Positions 5,629 to 34,313 of a DNA stretch of 64,000 nt are shown piece after piece. The DNA lies in the IMG/VR virus record IMGVR_UViG_3300045988_119379, positions 87,113 to 151,112 of that record; one strand, written 5' to 3'. The notes under the pieces were generated by a model that saw nothing but the letters and a program-made list of their open reading frames with translations, did not search any database and was not told the DNA's origin. Made by a program: the position numbers and the translations under genes. Source of the DNA: a virus. Numbering within the stretch: the first letter of the stretch is position 1; every line of letters begins with the position of its first letter.

Positions 5629-6159
5629 ATGAGAAGAAGATTTTTTAATGCTGCGGATAATTTTATGGGAGGATGTTATAATAAGTTATCTAATGAAGAT
5701 ATAAAAAGGCTTGGAGGAAAAAGACCTTATGTATGTCAGTTTAATAAAATTCATATACATATAGGGCCTGTATTAAAAGATCATGATTCCGATGTTAGTT
5801 ACATAATGTTTAATAGTAATTGGAATTATGGTGGTTATGAATCTATGGTTTATCATCATAGCAATAGTGGTATTTTTATATTAGGTGAAAACAAAATTGG
5901 TAATATAGAAGACCATATACAAGATCTAACATATTGGTACGAATATGATCCAAGCATTAATGAAAATTATTGTTATTTTTATTATGAGGCTAATAACAGC
6001 GGAAATGCTATCAAGTTGAATGGTGAGTTTGGTAGTACCAGTACTGTTTTCAACATTCCCAGCTTGGAAGTCACCACTCTTCGTGATGGCAGTTTGAGTT
6101 TTCCGGAGATTTATATAGAAGGAGTTTGGGATCCGTCATTGTATAAGTCAGTTTTATAA
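5629..6159 (+). CDS. hypothetical protein (176 aa)
   Basis: ATG at 5629 preceded by AAGGAG (5615-5620) with 8-nt spacer; overlaps stop of upstream giant gene; TAA stop. Confidence 0.6.
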   Translation: MRRRFFNAADNFMGGCYNKLSNEDIKRLGGKRPYVCQFNKIHIHIGPVLKDHDSDVSYIMFNSNWNYGGYESMVYHHSNSGIFILGENKIGNIEDHIQDLTYWYEYDPSINENYCYFYYEANNSGNAIKLNGEFGSTSTVFNIPSLEVTTLRDGSLSFPEIYIEGVWDPSLYKSVL

Positions 6160-6185
6160 TTAACTTTGCAAAAAAGTTAATCACT

Positions 6186-8441
6186 ATGGGTGTCAAATGT
6201 CAGATAGAAAAGAAGGAAAATAAAATAGAACGGGTTGAGGCTCCTAACGGTGAGCCTTCCGTTCTTTATGAAAGTGCCTTAAAATTATTGGGAAATAGCG
6301 AGCGAGCTCTTCAAGTATGGGCTAAGGCTTACACCTCTAATTTTTTGTCGTATTATGGTCATTGGAATAACCCGGCTCCAGGGGAGATGTTTAATACCGA
6401 TCCCAATGGCGAACCTCTTTTAGAAGATGTGCTGTCGTATATGAAGCGTCAGGCTTATTTTTCCGATCCTTTAACGGCTCAGGATGTTAAGGACGTAAGA
6501 GATGTTATGATATCCAATTCCATATATAGTATAAGATCTCTTATTAATAGAGTTATAAGCTCTTTTTATGTGGATGGTAATCTTATCCTAAATGAAGAAA
6601 ATCTAAGGAGATCCGGTTTGTATAATGAGACGGAAATAAGTAGGATATTAGATAATCCTTCTGCACTCAATGAGGTTAGCTCTTTTATGAGGCTATTATT
6701 AGACTATTCCAATAACGAACACGATCTCGGGAAAGAGTCTTACTTCACAACCGTAGAAAAACCATACGGCCCTGTTGTGTATAAAAATGGCGTCTTCAAT
6801 AAATTAGGAAAGAGAGTATCATATAATCCGGCTGAAGTTTACGAGGCTATAAAAAATACAGTAGGAGGTATTAGTGTTGCTTCAGAGTTTGATGCTGCTT
6901 TCGAATCTTTATCTGATTCATATCCGGAATTAGTTGAAAGATATCAGTCGGATAAGAGTTTTGCCTTGTCGCTGTTCAACGAATTTTCGAATATGAACAT
7001 CGTTCCGGTTGTAACTTTAGAAGATAATAATATCGTAGAAGGGAAGAGACGGTCATTATCAAAGTTGCAAGATTATGCTTATTACAGCCCTATTAACGCT
7101 GAGTCATTACGAGCTCGTATATCAGCCTTTCTAAATAGGGTTAATGCTGATACAGAAGAAGACCTTAGAAGTATGATATGGGACGTAGAAGAGGCTTGTG
7201 TGGGTCTTGGTATAGATATCGTAGGCGTGTCTAAGGCATATGACGGAACAGAAGAATCGCTGAATAAAATTGATAGCTTGATGCTGGATCTTGATATTTA
7301 TGTAGCAAGGCGCAACGATGATACTTATGCTCCTACCTTAGCTTCTGCTATCGATGACGTTCTTGGAGATAGCAAGGATCGCCGTGTTATGTTTCTGCCA
7401 GAGTATATGGATAATATGAATATCGTTTATATGGAATCTGACACAGATCCGGTATCGGCATTTGAAAATCATTCTCTGCTTTATCTTGGTGGAAACCTAT
7501 ATCATAAGGTAGAAAGAGATAATTTAGGTGATTTGTACGATATGGCTGCCGAGCTTGCCAAGCAGAGTCTGACTTATTTCCCACCTGGCATCTATCCTGA
7601 ATATTGTTTTAAAGATGGTGTTTTAGATAAGCTCCGCGTGAAAAACGTAGATAGTAAGGCCCTTGCTGATTCTATTAAAAAATATGTCCTGTCTTATACC
7701 GATTCTCAGAATACGGAAGAGATGAATGCTACCAGATTGGCGTTCGGTCATCTTGTTGTTCCAGGAAGCCCGTATGTTAATGAAGAACGGGAGTTTAGCC
7801 GATATATAAACAGAAAGCAGGACAAAGATAATCCTTTACTCTTATTCGATTTATACCAATCTTATCTTGAAAATAAGCTTCATAATACAGAAGTGTACGA
7901 AGGGGCATACAAGTATCTTGATTTCAAACCAGATCATTTGCTGGGTCTTACCGTTTCGGATCCGGATACGTTAAAACAAATTGAATTGTCTTTGGCAGGT
8001 AATAATCGTGAGCAGTTATTTGAGTATAGCATGAGCAGTACCGATCCTTCTTTTACAGATCTGTTCTATTTGGATTATTATGATATGTTATATGCCGGTT
8101 CTGATTTCTATCACGATCTTTTTACAAAACATCCTAATCTCTTAAATGAGGTTCGGGATCATAACATAACTAATCAGGATGATAATGTTATCGTAGAAGG
8201 TTTGTATGATAATTTTATCAGAATAAGAAATACGGTCTTCACTAAAGTCGGCGAGAGTAGTTCCGGCTCTATCTACCAAAATCTGACAGGAACCGAATCG
8301 GAGGTGAAATACGATTCTACTCAGAAGGCTAAGACGGTAGAAACCGATTACGCTCCATACCAAAACAGATCTGGCTTGACGCAAGACATGACCGTAAGCA
8401 AGTCTGAATTGGATGATCTTAATAAATTGGAATGCAGGTAA
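6186..8441 (+). CDS. large hypothetical protein (751 aa)
   Basis: long uninterrupted ORF co-directional with giant genes; followed by hairpin terminator at 8485-8518. Confidence 0.7.
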   Translation: MGVKCQIEKKENKIERVEAPNGEPSVLYESALKLLGNSERALQVWAKAYTSNFLSYYGHWNNPAPGEMFNTDPNGEPLLEDVLSYMKRQAYFSDPLTAQDVKDVRDVMISNSIYSIRSLINRVISSFYVDGNLILNEENLRRSGLYNETEISRILDNPSALNEVSSFMRLLLDYSNNEHDLGKESYFTTVEKPYGPVVYKNGVFNKLGKRVSYNPAEVYEAIKNTVGGISVASEFDAAFESLSDSYPELVERYQSDKSFALSLFNEFSNMNIVPVVTLEDNNIVEGKRRSLSKLQDYAYYSPINAESLRARISAFLNRVNADTEEDLRSMIWDVEEACVGLGIDIVGVSKAYDGTEESLNKIDSLMLDLDIYVARRNDDTYAPTLASAIDDVLGDSKDRRVMFLPEYMDNMNIVYMESDTDPVSAFENHSLLYLGGNLYHKVERDNLGDLYDMAAELAKQSLTYFPPGIYPEYCFKDGVLDKLRVKNVDSKALADSIKKYVLSYTDSQNTEEMNATRLAFGHLVVPGSPYVNEEREFSRYINRKQDKDNPLLLFDLYQSYLENKLHNTEVYEGAYKYLDFKPDHLLGLTVSDPDTLKQIELSLAGNNREQLFEYSMSSTDPSFTDLFYLDYYDMLYAGSDFYHDLFTKHPNLLNEVRDHNITNQDDNVIVEGLYDNFIRIRNTVFTKVGESSSGSIYQNLTGTESEVKYDSTQKAKTVETDYAPYQNRSGLTQDMTVSKSELDDLNKLECR

Positions 8442-22882: not shown

Positions 22883-23417
22883 CGTATTCGAATTTTAGAT
22901 TTTCAAGTTCGTGTATTTGTAACTTAAGAGACTTAATTAAATCCGTTCTCTGCTCCTCTGCATGTTTTAAAGCCTCTTCCTTGCTTTCAAAAGCACAATC
23001 CCCTATCTGATAAGGGGTGTAACGACCAGGAGTGTCGGCTAATAAAAGACCACCATAATCTTCTATTCTGGCTTTTACCTTTCTTATTTTCCCATCTTTT
23101 AGACACATGTCCGTAACCCATACGAATTTACCATATAATTTATCATACTTTTCTAATCTCTCTTCTTGCAATTCATACCATTTAGGCTTAGGAAATCTTA
23201 ATGTGAATTTAACCTCAGTATCTTTTTCTAAGACATTAATATCGTATGCTTCCGGCCACAGCTCTTTTATGCTGTCTTCGTCTTCGGCATACGCTACAAG
23301 TATGAATGAATCATCGGATTCACCACTACACCAATATGGATATTTTATAGGCCATTTGACTGGACGGTAGTCGTTATCGCAGTCGGATTTTTTAATGTAA
23401 AATCTTGTTCTAATCAT
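22875..23417 (-). CDS. hypothetical protein (180 aa)
   Basis: ORF in packed array. Confidence 0.55.
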   Translation of the reverse strand: MIRTRFYIKKSDCDNDYRPVKWPIKYPYWCSGESDDSFILVAYAEDEDSIKELWPEAYDINVLEKDTEVKFTLRFPKPKWYELQEERLEKYDKLYGKFVWVTDMCLKDGKIRKVKARIEDYGGLLLADTPGRYTPYQIGDCAFESKEEALKHAEEQRTDLIKSLKLQIHELENLKFEYDD

Positions 23418-24593
23418 GATTCTTTTATTCTTTTAAGTATATGTTCAATCACTTTAATAGTCCACCCGTTTCCCAACATCTTGTACTGTTGGGTTTCGCT
23501 GCATTCCCATTTATACCAATCTGGTACAGTCTGTAACCTGGAGCACTCTGTAGGGGTTAATCTTCTTATTCTGAAATCGCCATGTAATGTTCTCTGTATG
23601 ATAAAATTGTTTCTATCATATGAATTACAAGATAATGTTGGAGCCTTATCTTCATGAAATCCACCTTTGTTAAATCCTCTTGGTATTTGGAAAATAAGAT
23701 TATCTTCCTGAACTGTTGTGGGACAATTGGATTTTCCATCGTTTTTAAATTCAATCATCTGAACTGTTTTAAGACCAGATTCTCTACATGTAGGTTTTTC
23801 TGGATTCCTGCCTCTCATTGCTACACAAATAAGATCGTATGTGTATTTACCTTTTACGGTAACAGTATTGGATTTTTCATCTTTTGTTTTAATATTAGCT
23901 CCATAATAATTTCCCTTGTCGTGATTTCTTTTCAAGTGAAAAGCTAAATTGTTTAAAACTTTTTCAGATAAGTAATATTTTTCATCTACTTCATATTCAG
24001 CTATATCACTTATGGTCAAACCTTCGTCTTCAGGTTGAGGAATAATGCCGCCTTGAATATTAGTCCAATAAATACGTTTCCTGACTTGAGCGGAAACAAG
24101 TGCTGAATTAATATGATTGCCTTTACACCCTATAGTATCATCGAATACCGGCTCCCATTTCTTTCCCATCTTAACGTTCTCAAGAAGAAACAACACATCA
24201 GGATTAGTTTTTCTTACATCATTCAAAATACGAATAAACTCCCAGAATAAGTAAGACTGACCGGCAAATTCAAATCCTTGTTTTTTTTAATTCAAGATAC
24301 TCATTAAGTGATTTGATTTCTATTCCTTCTACGGTAGACAACCCTTTTCTTTTTCCAGAAAAGGACATATCCGTACATGGGCTGCCGGCTAAAATAAGAT
24401 CTATGTGTCCAAGATCTTCTACATTCAAATCCCTTACATCTCCTACTTGTATAGTATTAGGGAAATTTAATTGCGTTTGTTTAATAGCAAACTTATCTAT
24501 TTCTGATGCATAATATACTTCAGGTGTGATCCCTATTTCTTTTAACGCTATTTGACCACATGACATTCCGTCAAATAAACTTAACACTCTCAT
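23414..24593 (-). CDS. DNA (cytosine-5)-methyltransferase, split by a +1 frameshift at an A8 tract (24281-24288). N-part 24270-24593, C-part 23414-24226/24289.
   Basis: motif I MRVLSLFDGMSCG, motif IV GSPCTDMS, then after frameshift FEF...ENV (LFLLENV) and C-terminal GNGWT; removing one A restores ...LELKKQGFEFAGQSYLFWEF... Confidence 0.75.
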
Positions 24594-24597
24594 GGCA

Positions 24598-24906
24598 TTA
24601 TACACATTTTTCAATTTTAATTGATTTTGATGATAGATACATATTCCATATTCCTCTGCCTCTGTCACCTTTTTCGTTTTGTTTTTGGATTGTCAAGTAC
24701 AGATCTCCGTCTTCACATACTTCAACTTTTTTCAAGAAGCCTATCATTTCATCTCCTGCTTCGTGTAAAATACGGATCTTATCTCCTTCTTTTAACCCAT
24801 AATTGGAATCAAAATATTCTTTTTTGATTCTATCAATATTGTCTTTATGGTTTTTTATAGCATAAAGCTCTTTTCTTAATAAATAATTTAGTTGTTCTAT
24901 TGTCAT
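24598..24906 (-). CDS. hypothetical protein (102 aa)
   Basis: ORF; ends 4 nt before MTase start Met. Confidence 0.5.
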   Translation of the reverse strand: MTIEQLNYLLRKELYAIKNHKDNIDRIKKEYFDSNYGLKEGDKIRILHEAGDEMIGFLKKVEVCEDGDLYLTIQKQNEKGDRGRGIWNMYLSSKSIKIEKCV

Positions 24907-25448
24907 TTCTTTTCCTCCTTATTTAATGGTATCAACCCTTTTCCATGCTTGTCATACCACAGCATAGCTATGCAGTTCCATGCACATTGTGCAAGATGAA
25001 AACATCCTGTATCGGAATCCACTCTTTCTCCTTTCATGTATTCCATCAGGTGTCGAAACATTGCAGCTCGATACCGTTCAAATCCGTTGTCAAGATTCTG
25101 CCAATTATTAGGCCCATATTTCTTGGCTCCGGCATGATAGACTTTTACAATGTCCTCAATCTCTTCCATTGGAAGCAAATCCCATCGTAGTTTGTCGTCA
25201 ATGATGTCATTCTTTACCGACTTACTTTCTTTATTTTCAAAAAGAGTATTATCACTCTTAGATATATATTCAACTGGTACATCGAACTTCATACGACCTT
25301 CGTATGACAGTGTAACTTCTGTATCTCCTTTTTTGATATCCTTTTCACATGCAACCTTAAGTCCTTTTCTGGCTACTGTTACTTCACGAACATTAAGATC
25401 TCTGTTAAGAACTACATCGGTTCCTTTTTTAATAATAATATCGTCCAT
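24903..25448 (-). CDS. hypothetical protein (181 aa); C-terminal half (RWDLLP...AGAKKYGPNNW...) loosely resembles phage dATP/dGTP diphosphohydrolase-like domains (tentative)
   Basis: ORF; motif recall only. Confidence 0.45.
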   Translation of the reverse strand: MDDIIIKKGTDVVLNRDLNVREVTVARKGLKVACEKDIKKGDTEVTLSYEGRMKFDVPVEYISKSDNTLFENKESKSVKNDIIDDKLRWDLLPMEEIEDIVKVYHAGAKKYGPNNWQNLDNGFERYRAAMFRHLMEYMKGERVDSDTGCFHLAQCAWNCIAMLWYDKHGKGLIPLNKEEKK

Positions 25449-29447: not shown

Positions 29448-29617
29448 TGCACTCCCTTTAAGTAGTTAAACCAAATAGCCTCAAGTTTCTCCTGGAACTC
29501 AAACGCCTTTTTAAAATTTCTGCACCGTACCGCCACGTTCCTCATCTCTTCAAGATATATGACTTCCGGATCTTGCCGGTATTTTGTTCTTAACTTTTGA
29601 ACGTCCTCGTATTTCAT
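29444..29617 (-). CDS. small ORF (57 aa) not in supplied track, ATGA-coupled at both ends between the Cas4-like gene and the 107-aa gene
   Basis: ATG overlaps upstream TGA (29614-29617) and its TGA overlaps downstream ATG (29444-29447). Confidence 0.45.
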   Translation of the reverse strand: MKYEDVQKLRTKYRQDPEVIYLEEMRNVAVRCRNFKKAFEFQEKLEAIWFNYLKGVQ

Positions 29618-30633
29618 CGATTTATCTTTTTAGACGGATCCCAATCTGAAGAGAAAGGGCATTCGTTTTTGTTATGTAATCCAAAGTCACAATAATAACA
29701 CAGTGCCGACGGGCAGGGTAGCTTGTTTTGCGAAACAGGCTGGCTTAGGGTGGCACGCCGCTTGCTATATCTGGCCCCTTCTGCTCCCTGGATGTACGCT
29801 TGAAATGATTTTACACTATTATCTTCAAAATCATACATTTTAGATAAAGTGTCATTTAGCATTTCTATAGATTTTGTTTTACGCTCTTCATCCACCTTAA
29901 CCTTTTGGTACTGTCTGGTCCTGGTAAAGAAATAGATGTTCATATCTGGCAGAACTCCACCATATTTTCTATAGATGTAAAACGAATATATAGGATGCTG
30001 TAAATTCGTTTCCAACTTCTTAGAATCAAAAACCTTATTACCTGATTTCCAATCTATGACATAATGGTGAACTACGTTCTTGCTCTTTATAGCCAGATGA
30101 AGATCCACCGATCCTACTATGTACACATGAGTATGAACGGTCCCATTTATATCAACAGGCTTAGGAAGACGGTACGGCAGCACAAAATCTTCTTCGACTC
30201 CAACTATAGCACCGTGTCTAATAAGTTTCTCGCAGGGATTAAGATCACTATCAGCTATCATAAACTTATTCCCGTCTTTTTTAAACAGATCCACAATCCA
30301 AGCAAGAAGCTCCCCGGATTGCTTCATGGCTATCATCATATTTTCCGGTGATTGCCAAGGTATGTCTTCTTGATAGGAATAGTAACTTATTGCTTCTCCA
30401 AGGTCTTTACCAGAAGGCTGTCTTCCGTTCTTAAAAAAGTATTCCAGTGTCTTATGGATAACCGTACCATAAGACGTAGCTTCTTGTTTTTCCGTAGACC
30501 TTTTGCCCTCTACGTAAGTCTTATACCATTTCATTGGACAGGTAAGAAACGTATCTATCTGGGAATAAGATATGGCAAGACGTTTTACACCATTAAACTC
30601 CTTATATAGCAAATGCGTTTCCGGGACCATCAT
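29614..30633 (-). CDS. Cas4/RecB-family PD-(D/E)XK exonuclease with Fe-S cluster cysteines (339 aa)
   Basis: N-terminal SYSQIDTFLTCPMKWY, core VGSVDL...IDWKSG (D...D/ExK), C-terminal CPCPSALCYYC...C cluster. Confidence 0.55.
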   Translation of the reverse strand: MMVPETHLLYKEFNGVKRLAISYSQIDTFLTCPMKWYKTYVEGKRSTEKQEATSYGTVIHKTLEYFFKNGRQPSGKDLGEAISYYSYQEDIPWQSPENMMIAMKQSGELLAWIVDLFKKDGNKFMIADSDLNPCEKLIRHGAIVGVEEDFVLPYRLPKPVDINGTVHTHVYIVGSVDLHLAIKSKNVVHHYVIDWKSGNKVFDSKKLETNLQHPIYSFYIYRKYGGVLPDMNIYFFTRTRQYQKVKVDEERKTKSIEMLNDTLSKMYDFEDNSVKSFQAYIQGAEGARYSKRRATLSQPVSQNKLPCPSALCYYCDFGLHNKNECPFSSDWDPSKKINR

Positions 30634-30989
30634 AAGTCATTGTCTTTAAATCCTTCCGGGTAATATACGACATACTTCTTACCGTCTTCTGGTGTCATGG
30701 CAAACTGCATGTAGTTATTACGATTACGATGCTTGCCATCTAATCCTCGCTTCCAATACAGAATCCCATCTATATCCACATAAGACCGTCCGCGTTCGGC
30801 TCTAACTACGTCCGTGTGTAGCAGATACCCGTCGGAAGACACAATCCATACTTTATCCCCTTTGTTTAAATAAGATATTCTTTTTCTTACAACAACCTTT
30901 TTCTTATTATCTAATGCAAATTCTTCATCCGTCATATTCTTCATCCTCCTCTTCTTCTGTTTCAAAATCAATTCCATGACACTGATCAT
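30630..30989 (-). CDS. hypothetical protein (119 aa)
   Basis: ORF. Confidence 0.5.
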   Translation of the reverse strand: MISVMELILKQKKRRMKNMTDEEFALDNKKKVVVRKRISYLNKGDKVWIVSSDGYLLHTDVVRAERGRSYVDIDGILYWKRGLDGKHRNRNNYMQFAMTPEDGKKYVVYYPEGFKDNDL

Positions 30990-31103
30990 AATGCTTGGTC
31001 AGTTCTTCTGGTTCTAAATCTTGTCCAAAATCCATGTTAAAAATATTGTAATTAGTAAAGCACTGTCCCTGCCGGCAGGAAATCTATGAATGCTGCTTTT
31101 GCT

Positions 31104-31125
31104 TCTTCAATTAGGCCCAAGTGTA
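31104..31125. terminator. GC-rich hairpin GGCCCAAG-tgtaac-CTTGGGCC just 3' of the flotillin gene; T-run lies on the + side, so orientation is ambiguous
   Basis: perfect 8-bp stem; adjacent 12-bp palindrome CCTGCCGGCAGG at 31068-31079. Confidence 0.35.
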
Positions 31126-31142
31126 ACCTTGGGCCATTGTAT

Positions 31143-32843
31143 TTATTTTTTGTCATCTCCTTTTAACTTCTTTAAAGTATCTGCAATCGGAAGCTGATCA
31201 ATGACTCCCAATGCCGGAGCAACGGCCTTAACAACATTGTTAAGGAAATTACCGGTGCTGTTCTGACCGCCGTCAAATACCGTGATATTTCCGAGATTGA
31301 TGTGCTCGAACGCCTTAACCTGTTCTCCAGCAATTTCTTTCCACTGATTAACCATCTTGTACTGGATGGCGATCTGAGGATTGGATTCTGCTGCTTCCAC
31401 CATAGCCTTAAATCCGTCGGCTTCTGCCATCAACGACTTTTTCTTACCTTCGGCTTCCGCTTCCAGCTTCATCTGAATAGCTTTTGCTTCCGCCTCTGCT
31501 TTTGCCAAATGTGCTGCTGCTTCAGCATCGGCCCGGCGTTTGATCTTCTCAGCTTCAGCATCAGCTTGCAAGATAGCCTCTTCCTTCTGGGTTTCAGCCG
31601 GCACAATCTTTTCAGCTTTAAGCGCAGCTTGAACCTTCTTAGCTTTAGCTTCTTCCACTTCTTTATCAGCAAGCTCTTTTGCCGTTTTCACAGCCGCTTC
31701 CGATTTAACTTTCTCTTCCCCGGCTTTCTTTTCTGATTGAGCTTTGATAACCTGCAATTCTGATTCTGATACAGCAACCTCTTTCTGGGCATTGTTGTAG
31801 CCTACAGAAGCATTTTTCTCAGCTTCAGCTTTCTTAATCTGAGCTTCAGAGTCTTGTATTGCTATAGCTGCTTGTTTGTCAGCTTCAGCTTTATTCTTCC
31901 CAACTTCTTCCATTCTTTCGGCTTCAGCTTTGTTTACTTCAAGTTCCGCCTTAGATCTTGCGATCGCTGATTCCTTGTCAGCCAAAGTCTTTGCTATAGC
32001 CGCAGCCCTATCTCTATCGGCTTGAGCTACACCGATCTGTTTTTCTTTATCGGTTAAAGCCAAAGCTACTTCTTTTTCTTTCTTTGTTTCAGCTACTACC
32101 GTTTCTTTTTCTTTTTCAGTATAGGCAATTTGAATCTCTTGCTCTTTTTGGGTATTAGCTACAGCCGTTTCTTTTTCCTTCTGTTGTACAGCAATCTTAA
32201 TAGCACCCAGCTTTTCCTGTTCTTCGATATTAGCCTGTGCTTCGTTCAGAGCCTTGCTTTCAGCCTCTTTACCAAGATTCATGATGTAGCCGGCTTCATC
32301 TCTGATGTCACTGATGTTAATGTTCAAAAGATAAAGACCCAATTTATTAAGTTCGTTATCAATGTTTTTTCTTGCCTTATCCAAAAACTCATCCCTATCA
32401 GAATTAAGTTTTTCGATTGTCATTTCGGCAATAATCAAACGCATCTGACCGTAAACGATGTCTGTAATAAGATTTTCAGTAGATTCGGTATCCATCCCCA
32501 AAAGTCTTTCTGCTGCATTTTGCATGATTTCAGGATTTGTACTGATAGCTACTGTAATAGTTGTAGGCACATCTACTCTAATATTCTGAGATGACAAAGC
32601 ACCAGTAAGCCTACAATCTATTTGCATAGGCTCCATAGATAAAATATCATAGCTTTGGATAATAGGCAACACGAATGCTGCTCCACCATGATATAATTTC
32701 GCCGATTTCTTTTCCCCACCTGTCTTACCGTAAACGACCAAAACCTGATTAGGCTTGCATCTACGATACCTTGATAAGACTCCGATGATTGTCAAAATAA
32801 TCACTACAGCTAAGATAGCTGACACGTACATGATCGTTGTCAT
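31143..32843 (-). CDS. flotillin-like SPFH/band-7 protein (FloT/YuaG-like, 566 aa): N-terminal membrane hairpin, SPFH domain, long Glu/Ala-rich coiled-coil flotillin repeat region
   Basis: N-terminus MTTIMYVSAILAVVIILTIIGVLSRYRRCKPNQVLVVYG resembles B. subtilis FloT; EA-repeat coiled coil. Confidence 0.75.
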   Translation of the reverse strand: MTTIMYVSAILAVVIILTIIGVLSRYRRCKPNQVLVVYGKTGGEKKSAKLYHGGAAFVLPIIQSYDILSMEPMQIDCRLTGALSSQNIRVDVPTTITVAISTNPEIMQNAAERLLGMDTESTENLITDIVYGQMRLIIAEMTIEKLNSDRDEFLDKARKNIDNELNKLGLYLLNINISDIRDEAGYIMNLGKEAESKALNEAQANIEEQEKLGAIKIAVQQKEKETAVANTQKEQEIQIAYTEKEKETVVAETKKEKEVALALTDKEKQIGVAQADRDRAAAIAKTLADKESAIARSKAELEVNKAEAERMEEVGKNKAEADKQAAIAIQDSEAQIKKAEAEKNASVGYNNAQKEVAVSESELQVIKAQSEKKAGEEKVKSEAAVKTAKELADKEVEEAKAKKVQAALKAEKIVPAETQKEEAILQADAEAEKIKRRADAEAAAHLAKAEAEAKAIQMKLEAEAEGKKKSLMAEADGFKAMVEAAESNPQIAIQYKMVNQWKEIAGEQVKAFEHINLGNITVFDGGQNSTGNFLNNVVKAVAPALGVIDQLPIADTLKKLKGDDKK

Positions 32844-32876
32844 AACTTTTAAAATTTAATTGTTGATATAAAAAAA

Positions 32877-33371
32877 TTAGATACTTAATTCTCCTTCTTC
32901 GTATTTTATGTTCACCTTGTCACCATTTTTGTAATTTTTCCCAGACAAGCACCTTACTCTCATCTGTTCCTGTCTCCCGTTTTTCACAATATTTACCATA
33001 TAATGGTTCTTTCCTGATCTAAATACTATCTCCACCTCTCTGCCATTTAAATCTTCTGGACATTCGTACACCATTTCTTGTTTTAACTTAAGAAGTAACT
33101 TATATACGTAAAACAAAACGATAAAGAAAAACGACCCTATCACAACCCCTACTAAATGAGAACCCGAAAAGTAGGTAGTCCAGCTATATCCAAGGATGAA
33201 ATGTGTTATGCCCTTGAATGATATGATGTCCGACAAAGACATACTTAAATCAGAAGCACTGTCAATGTCAATATCCGTATCCAGATCAGATCCTAATATC
33301 GACAACAAAAACTGTATAACAAAAGCAAATGACGCTATTAAAGCCATGCATAAAATTATATCATTTCCCAT
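32877..33371 (-). CDS. NfeD-like membrane protein (164 aa): about 3 TM helices plus C-terminal OB-fold-like beta domain; canonical partner of SPFH proteins
   Basis: TM segments then GREVEIVF...GKNHYMVNI...MRVRC...GDKVNIKYEEGEL; position immediately upstream of flotillin. Confidence 0.5.
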   Translation of the reverse strand: MGNDIILCMALIASFAFVIQFLLSILGSDLDTDIDIDSASDLSMSLSDIISFKGITHFILGYSWTTYFSGSHLVGVVIGSFFFIVLFYVYKLLLKLKQEMVYECPEDLNGREVEIVFRSGKNHYMVNIVKNGRQEQMRVRCLSGKNYKNGDKVNIKYEEGELSI

Positions 33372-33612
33372 ATCCTTCTGTTATTATTTTGTAAACAAGA
33401 TCAGTCATATCTTTGATGGATTCTGTATCATAATCAATAATAACGATATTGAATTTTTGTTCCACCATCGCATCAAGCTCAATTCGATCAATAGAATCTA
33501 ATCCAAGTTCTTTAAACGACACATCTTCTTCATGAACTATATCCATTTCCGAATTAAGAAACTGAGTAATAATTATATCCTCTATTATCTTTCTAATTCT
33601 TACTTTTTCCAT
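33361..33612 (-). CDS. acyl carrier protein (83 aa) with phosphopantetheine-attachment motif LGLDSIDRIELDAMVE
   Basis: close match to AcpP signature [23 protein letters not shown]; overlaps NfeD start by 11 nt. Confidence 0.7.
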   Translation of the reverse strand: MEKVRIRKIIEDIIITQFLNSEMDIVHEEDVSFKELGLDSIDRIELDAMVEQKFNIVIIDYDTESIKDMTDLVYKIITEGYGK

Positions 33613-34313
33613 TGCTTTCTAATTTTGTTAAATAAATACGTTTTTATGTTTTTCAATCGCTCTTTATCTGTCTCCGAGCTTCCGGTAAACAAATAATCCG
33701 GATTGCCTTTAGCCGGCGGCGTAGGCAATTTAGATACGGCAAACAACCAATCCATTTCCTTATTCTTCTTAGACTCCAAATAAGGCTCGGTAGCGATCTT
33801 AAATTTTTCAGCTATTAAGTCAAAGAGCTTTGAATTTTTAAGGTTCATATGGACTGAAAAAGCCTGAGAAGGCGGTTTCCATATGAAGTTACATAAGCTC
33901 ATTGTATAATCTCCTGACTCTGCTATATAAGATTCCGTTACCTGAAGTATGACCTCTTTCTTGAATGAGGTGTTACCCATAAACCAACACAATCTGGATT
34001 CCGCTTCTTTTCTGCTGACACCTATGTCTTTTGAATACGATTCGTACATTCCTATCATAATCTTCAACGTTTCCTGAACCTCGTCTGTCATCTCCGGTGT
34101 CTCTATATAATTCACAAAAGACGTTCCTTTGTTGGTTAATCTCATCACACCTGATTTTAATTTCTCAACCAGGCCAAGCTCTATATACCTCCCAGCATCT
34201 TCTTTCGGCATGGCTTCGATCATAACCGAATCCTTCTGTCTTATGGCAAGAAGATTAGCAAGATCATTAGGAGTCATGTTTGATGCTGCAAGTTGTCTGA
34301 AATTGATGTACAT
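33600..34313 (-). CDS. hypothetical protein (237 aa), first gene of the ACP-NfeD-flotillin string
   Basis: ORF overlapping ACP start by 13 nt. Confidence 0.5.
   Translation of the reverse strand: MYINFRQLAASNMTPNDLANLLAIRQKDSVMIEAMPKEDAGRYIELGLVEKLKSGVMRLTNKGTSFVNYIETPEMTDEVQETLKIMIGMYESYSKDIGVSRKEAESRLCWFMGNTSFKKEVILQVTESYIAESGDYTMSLCNFIWKPPSQAFSVHMNLKNSKLFDLIAEKFKIATEPYLESKKNKEMDWLFAVSKLPTPPAKGNPDYLFTGSSETDKERLKNIKTYLFNKIRKQWKK

Follow-up and report, generated by a model that had tools for sequence, protein, structure and literature searches.

A fast-evolving orphan acyl carrier protein gene in a hypervariable cargo slot of a human-gut crAss-like phage may encode a docking protein for a host partner

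We analysed a window of 64,000 nucleotides of viral DNA (IMG/VR record IMGVR_UViG_3300045988_119379, positions 87,113 to 151,112 of that record) around a small gene of the acyl carrier protein (ACP) family, all window genes described here being encoded on the minus strand. The ACP open reading frame (33361..33612) runs from ATG to stop, encodes 83 amino acids with a pI of 4.35 and a net charge of -10 (full translation: MEKVRIRKIIEDIIITQFLNSEMDIVHEEDVSFKELGLDSIDRIELDAMVEQKFNIVIIDYDTESIKDMTDLVYKIITEGYGK) and has matches in Pfam, PHROG, NCBIfam and the PDB. The motif LGLDSIDRIELDAMVE (residues 36-51; 33460..33507) comprises the putative phosphopantetheine-attachment site and the acidic recognition helix II, which reads as a canonical GLDS(40)IDRIELD with the acidic residues D39, D42, E45, D47 and E51; the codon TCT at 33493..33495 encodes Ser40, the putative 4'-phosphopantetheine attachment residue. 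Directly upstream lies the gene for p237 (33600..34313), a 237-aa winged-helix DNA-binding protein conserved in crAss-like phages, the 3' end of which overlaps the ACP start by 13 nt. Downstream, the gene for a 164-aa membrane protein with three transmembrane helices and a putative C-terminal beta domain (32877..33371; TM protein), being NfeD-like by topology only, overlaps the ACP stop with its start by 11 nt and is followed after a gap of 33 nt by the gene for a flotillin of 566 aa (31143..32843) containing SPFH/Band_7 and Flot domains and an N-terminal TM helix. The conserved downstream flank (29614..30989) is formed by p119 (30630..30989) and a PD-(D/E)XK exonuclease (29614..30633; Pfam PDDEXK_1), which border the variable slot described below in most related phages.

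The ORF was assigned to the ACP family by several profile collections. The Pfam family PP-binding (PF00550) matches with 26.7 bits (E=7e-6), above its curated gathering cutoff of 20.8, PHROG 5934 'acyl carrier protein' matches with E=8.8e-8, and several NCBIfam ACP models align near full-length (best E=5e-7). Among solved structures, 62 chains match at E<=0.01 (best E=1e-5) with the D-S-L/I-D motif and helix II in register; all but three of the best 60 of these are named acyl carrier protein, the three others being ACP subunits of complex I or the mitoribosome (SDAP1/2, mt-SAF32). When the protein is aligned with stand-alone ACPs, D39, E45 and E51 show no variation and S40 hardly any. Judged by these scores the family match is far beyond chance, confirming the claim of the first-pass annotation that the gene encodes an ACP with a near-canonical PP-binding motif and a modifiable serine, and the near full-length alignment to solved ACPs suggests a four-helix-bundle fold. 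Size (~80 aa), pI (~4.3) and the D-S-(L/I)-D sequence opening an acidic helix II are shared with the bacterial type II ACPs (AcpP; PF00550), and D39, D42, E45 and E51 match residues used there for docking of AcpS and of enzymes of fatty acid synthesis. In contrast to these, the window ACP is only 30-40% identical to any non-phage ACP and stays below every NCBIfam equivalog cutoff (best 29 bits versus 66-106 for TIGR00517 and NF002148-51); by these cutoffs it is not a housekeeping AcpP equivalog. The identical protein, which we found on at least 1000 contigs, is labelled ACP in JGI and DUF1493 in NCBI metagenome-derived phage records; Pfam at E<=0.1 does not reproduce the DUF1493 label.

The window is 94.7% identical at the nucleotide level to the phage csAssE-Sib (OR575929; a 151-kb genome from the human gut), in which the order p237, ACP, TM protein, flotillin is the same and in which the orthologue WOZ57347 is already annotated 'acyl carrier protein'. 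The ACPs of both phages share ~88% protein identity over residues 16-83, compared to 96.9% for flotillin and 98.3% for p237. The source is best explained as a human-gut crAss-like phage infecting Bacteroides, and the ACP as an accessory early or middle phage gene. A literature search found no paper dealing with csAssE-Sib, nor any dealing with ACPs of crAss-like phages. Stand-alone ACPs lacking a fatty-acid pathway, like the one described here, are known from other phages, comprising PHROG 5934, g153 of the Yersinia phage fHe-Yen9-04, ORF32 of the Erythrobacter phage vB_EliS-R6L and the ACP modules of flavobacterial jumbophages, and for ACP homologs in other phages it was stated that their 'function remains unclear' (PMC5463345; PMC13573597). 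The window ACP is a further orphan phage ACP, i.e. of a kind already known and with its gene already annotated in GenBank. It differs from the others in that its family is restricted to a single group of crAss-like phages of the gut, where it occupies a defined hypervariable slot; to the fHe-Yen9-04 ACP there is no close relationship (41.5% identity over 59% of the window ACP). Orphan ACP genes thus recur in phages, and the present one sits in a very abundant crAss-like phage of the human gut.

A carrier protein of a phage-encoded pathway would be expected in the company of enzymes. Our Pfam scans covered the neighbourhood genes, 80 further ORFs and three giant ORFs of the window as well as 42 unannotated csAssE-Sib CDSs located outside the window. 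No family of phosphopantetheinyl transferases (PPTase; ACPS), acyltransferases, ketosynthases, AMP-binding proteins/ligases or thioesterases was detected in the window, in agreement with the earlier statement that no PPTase or acyltransferase is recognisable there. The same holds for the remainder of the genome, for which the 95%-identical csAssE-Sib served as a proxy: these families are absent from its 42 unannotated CDSs by Pfam and from the depositors' annotation. As judged from these scans, no enzyme stands alongside the carrier that would make it part of a self-contained phage acyl-transfer or PKS/FAS module. With neither a PPTase nor an enzyme of acyl processing encoded by the phage, the ACP could be modified only by the host, which supports the proposed dependence on the host. 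With the D-S-I-D motif and D39, D42, E45 and E51 all being kept, a host AcpS-type transferase may convert the window ACP to holo-ACP.

For p237 no Pfam or PHROG family was matched. The AlphaFold2 model (pLDDT 88) shows an N-terminal MarR-like winged helix and no enzyme fold. Within its family in crAss-like phages, which combines the winged helix with a helical C-terminal domain, W110, W145, S161 and D165 are invariant. Roles as an acyltransferase, a ligase or a single-strand-annealing partner of the exonuclease were considered and rejected, as the model shows neither an enzyme nor an SSAP fold. Several related phages carry p237 but no ACP at all. The suggestion that the ACP might deliver acyl groups to the adjacent 237-aa protein therefore did not hold, the latter being a DNA-binding protein that has no enzyme fold and exists without an ACP in several relatives. 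The 13-nt overlap is common to every lineage having an ACP-like gene; in locus L087 a non-ACP gene starts at the same overlap.

The two genes downstream of the ACP have close chromosomal counterparts. Flotillin is supported by Pfam (Band_7, PF01145, E=2.5e-25; Flot, PF15975, E=1.8e-9), and the NCBIfam FloT model scores 146 bits, below its equivalog cutoff. The phage flotillin shares 62-66% identity with flotillins encoded on Bacteroides and Phocaeicola chromosomes (loci L104-L131), e.g. those of B. xylanisolvens XB1A and P. vulgatus ATCC 8482. In these genera a TM protein of 165-177 aa is encoded directly upstream of flotillin, and the phage TM protein shares 33-37% identity with this counterpart in most recovered Bacteroides loci; in the Phocaeicola-type loci the counterpart was undetected by tblastn, though the Phocaeicola protein does align. 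The gene upstream of the host TM protein does not encode an ACP; from reading the ORF translations we take it to be truA or ybeY. The close chromosomal counterparts of TM protein and flotillin suggest that the phage acquired both genes together from the lineage of its host, as an operon of two genes, which points to a host among the Bacteroidaceae. Phage-encoded flotillins are rare, with 9 matches in 50,697 phage records. With PADLOC, none of the ACP, p237, the TM protein and flotillin matched a defence system significantly.

NfeD-SPFH/flotillin operons are known from B. subtilis (yuaF-floT) and E. coli (yqiJK). The phage pair resembles these in its gene order, the flotillin gene being directly preceded by that of a small multi-TM protein for which a C-terminal beta domain is predicted; this adjacency is found in phage and host alike. 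The pair differs from these operons in that the phage TM protein and its Bacteroides homolog match no Pfam NfeD family or solved NfeD and that the ACP is not part of the operon: scans for NfeD (PF01957) were negative both with the phage TM protein (threshold E<=0.1) and with its homologs from Bacteroides/Phocaeicola (threshold E<=1), and a profile built from 12 TM-protein homologs retrieved no NfeD chain from the PDB. In a single-sequence AlphaFold2 model of low confidence (pLDDT 53), three long helices are seen together with some six strands at the C-terminus. The label 'NfeD' given to the TM protein on first reading is thus unsupported by any profile. Delivery of acyl groups to the TM protein/flotillin pair, proposed along with this label, is not supported by the data either: the host flotillin operon in the Bacteroides/Phocaeicola loci has no ACP, ACP knock-out alleles leave the pair intact, and a Ser-type ACP occurs in locus L135 without the pair. 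The best explanation is that the ACP is probably not mechanistically tied to p237 or to the TM protein/flotillin pair.

To describe variation within the phage species we used 80 IMG/VR contigs carrying the same cassette with flotillins being 97-100% identical. The ratio pN/pS is 0.38 for the ACP, compared to 0.056 for p237, 0.071 for the TM protein and 0.042 for flotillin; the ACP lies below neutrality in a segregating-site test (P=0.03). Diversifying selection centred on helix II was rejected, pN/pS being ~0.4 in all longer ACP segments (0.25-0.45) without a hot spot. The Ser40 codon is TCT in all 73 equal-length strain alleles, while 33 other positions vary, and the Asp-Ser pair is invariant in these 73 window-type alleles as well as in all 15 listed members of the cluster from the related locus L086. 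This invariance fits the requirement of a holo-ACP in both lineages. Nonsense (four) or frameshift (one) alleles of the ACP, which were drawn from metagenome assemblies and could include consensus errors, occur in 5 of 79 strain contigs, the ORF being intact in ~94%. Both downstream genes are intact in each of these five. In the same contigs no knock-outs were found for p237 and the TM protein, and three C-terminal truncations for flotillin. These truncations (L008, L009, L041) are due to nonsense changes at flotillin codons 490/500, resulting in a loss of the last ~70 residues within the Flot domain. A recoding of stop codons was rejected as explanation for the in-frame stops in the ACP: the three TAA codons and one TGA codon occupy different sites, and every one of them differs from GAA, CAA or CGA by one base. 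Two further proteins are in-frame fusions, P0121 joining the ACP N-terminus to the TM protein C-terminus and P0123 joining the ACP N-terminus to the flotillin C-terminus; these are either natural internal cassette deletions or assembly chimeras.

By anchoring on p237 homologs we compared the contents of the slot, from p237 to the exonuclease, in related phages. The window and L086 contain a Ser-type ACP followed by TM protein and flotillin. In L091, L093 and L094, which belong to the same species as the window phage, an ACP-like gene is present which is 36% identical to the window ACP and has the serine replaced by Tyr (Phe in L094), and TM protein and flotillin are missing. The ACP-like genes of L084, L098-L100 and L134 have Asp or Asn in place of the serine and are accompanied by a C5 methylase and two radical-SAM genes, which are located downstream of the ACP-like gene (8217..9946 in L084). 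L135 has a Ser-type ACP and a methylase, and L136, L089, L088, L087 and L085/L090 have no ACP in the slot. The backbones of L091, L093 and L094 are nearly identical to that of the window (DnaB 98%, p200 100%, p237 97-98%, exonuclease 96-98%), and blastn breakpoints against these three define a variable cassette of 2.5 kb (31044..33571) comprising most of the ACP gene (starting at about codon 14) together with the TM protein and flotillin. In L091 a 293-bp block (6042..6334) with the Ser-to-Tyr ACP-like gene replaces this cassette, the flanks of the swap showing ~85-95% nucleotide identity. In the window species, Ser-type ACP, TM protein and flotillin are thus gained or lost as a single 2.5-kb unit. 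A strict tie of Ser-type ACPs to the TM protein/flotillin pair, which held in four lineages, was rejected, being broken by L135 with its methylase and no flotillin and also undercut by the host flotillin operon without an ACP. In the Ser-type ACP gene of L135 (5694..5935), nine consecutive A directly behind codon 8 contain a +1 frameshift, for which an assembly error in the homopolymer, a pseudogene or slippage-dependent expression may be considered.

In both lineage pairs compared, the ACP or ACP-like gene is the most diverged one: between the window and L086 it shares 36% identity, versus 64-84% for the neighbours, and between L084 and L134 48%, versus 76-91%. The serine was lost at least twice among positional orthologs sharing the 13-nt overlap with p237. 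The Asp/Asn type forms a clade of at least 23 protein clusters plus one member which is only 48% identical and still reads GFDDLD, showing that the Asp-type ORF stayed intact through deep divergence without the serine. The Ser-less copies have pN/pS values of 0.35-1.1, i.e. near-neutral over short distances, the Tyr type showing six nonsynonymous and no synonymous differences; these copies may be relics in decay and need not prove that a function independent of the serine exists. The acidic positions of helix II and the overall acidity (pI 4.05-4.35) are retained in all clades, the motif and the helix II acidic residues being kept across clades that are only 28-48% identical. Loss of the serine in homologs had been named beforehand as the observation speaking against a genuine ACP; it was found in the positional orthologs, as Tyr within the same species and as Asp or Asn in the sister clade, whereas the serine of the window type itself stood invariant. 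Judged by sequence comparison, the slot is a hot spot for cargo and the ACP gene is accessory, labile and fast-evolving; it is best explained as being conditionally useful and often lost. IS605/TnpB elements and intein-like (Hom_end_hint/LAGLIDADG) insertions in the SNF2-type helicase adjoining the slot were observed in L087, L088 and L136, consistent with a recombination-prone region.

The ACP fold, its acidity and helix II are kept across lineages and the serine is not, suggesting that the selected function is most likely an ACP-like protein-protein recognition. As the best overall explanation, to which we assign a probability of roughly 0.45, we propose that the selected trait is an ACP-like docking to a host partner in the sense of mimicry or takeover rather than acyl carriage. 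According to this model, a small and very acidic protein of the ACP fold would act on a host enzyme or regulator to which ACP normally docks, by binding, titrating or redirecting it; the window allele may be made holo-ACP by the host AcpS, and the selected function would probably not need the prosthetic group. We infer this role entirely from the evolutionary pattern. In E. coli, apo-ACP inhibits growth, which is comparable in principle to the proposed takeover. The absence of cognate enzymes, an evolution faster than that of the neighbours, the dispensability and the loss of the serine in positional orthologs all set the window ACP apart from the bacterial type II ACPs. Being fast-evolving, dispensable and having lost the serine in sister phages, it is probably not the hub or carrier of a phage-encoded acyl-transfer pathway.

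A genuine holo-ACP with an auxiliary metabolic role is considered to be less probable than docking. The host AcpS would modify Ser40, the host FAS-II or an acyl-ACP synthetase would load the holo-ACP, and phospholipid or lipid A synthesis would be boosted or redirected, possibly together with the TM protein and flotillin. This would agree with the canonical DS(I/L)D motif preceding the acidic helix II, with the Asp-Ser pair staying invariant amid the 33 variable positions, with the weak but significant purifying selection, with the joint movement of Ser-type ACP, TM protein and flotillin in one cassette of the window species, with the success of an allele found on so many contigs and with the category 'moron, auxiliary metabolic gene and host takeover' to which PHROGs assigns phage ACPs. 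It is at odds with the rate of evolution, bacterial ACPs evolving slowly and the window ACP being the fastest-evolving gene of its neighbourhood, with the replacement of the serine in positional orthologs even within the same species and with the absence of acyl-handling enzymes from the Pfam-scanned window and csAssE-Sib. A joint action with the flotillin pair is moreover countered by the knock-out alleles in which the pair is intact, by the host operon lacking an ACP and by the Ser-type ACP of L135 lacking flotillin. Were the serine-independent reading wrong, the window protein would be one more phage ACP relying on the host AcpS; were it true, some of the phage 'ACPs' filed as auxiliary metabolic genes may act as protein mimics instead of carriers.

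A narrower form of the docking model, in which the protein is a mimic of the host ACP, docks with helix II on a host client of ACP and is engaged in an arms race with this target, appears rather unlikely. Candidate targets would be an acyltransferase of lipid synthesis, AcpS, or a stringent-response or regulatory protein. Such an arms race would explain that the gene evolves fastest locally, that its alleles are swapped within one species and that the serine changes to Tyr, Asp or Asn. If the mimic reading is true, it would define a new class of phage host-takeover or anti-host factors built on the ACP fold.

More doubtful still is a decaying or functionless passenger, according to which the ACP was acquired long ago and drifts in the recombination-prone slot, persisting only because its start lies inside the conserved 3' end of p237. 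The relaxed constraint, the nonsense and frameshift alleles, the pN/pS values near 1 in Ser-less copies and the patchy presence in close relatives would be accounted for by drift. The pN/pS of 0.38 of the window type with P=0.03 against neutrality, the motif and helix II acidic residues kept across strongly diverged clades and an ORF intact in ~94% of strain contigs and through the deep divergence of L084 and L134 would not. A co-translated partner or regulator of p237 modulating its DNA binding, by analogy to acyl-ACP acting as co-repressor of the MarR-type FabT, would fit the 13-nt stop/start overlap kept in every ACP-like-bearing lineage and is nevertheless improbable given that p237 is highly constrained (pN/pS 0.056) while the ACP varies more than any other gene and is lacking from five of the lineages sampled, that the non-ACP gene of L087 uses the same overlapping start and that FabT is just one among ~60 generic MarR matches.

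Serine-, Tyr- and Asp-type, knock-out and ACP-less genotypes form a natural series on near-isogenic backbones, by which the function of the ACP would be testable, and the defined, swappable 2.5-kb cassette carries the flotillin pair of probable host origin. Elsewhere in the window, the gene of a C5 cytosine DNA methyltransferase is divided between two ORFs (23414..24226 and 24270..24668), one matching positions 1-87 (N-terminal) and the other positions 150-323 (C-terminal) of the PF00145 profile, while the csAssE-Sib methyltransferase is a single CDS of 375 aa; a frameshift, an insertion or a split enzyme could underlie the split. Adjoining this methylase is a dATP/dGTP diphosphohydrolase domain (PF18909, E=8e-27; 24903..25448), and the location of such an enzyme beside a methylase hints at a non-canonical nucleotide or DNA-modification chemistry.
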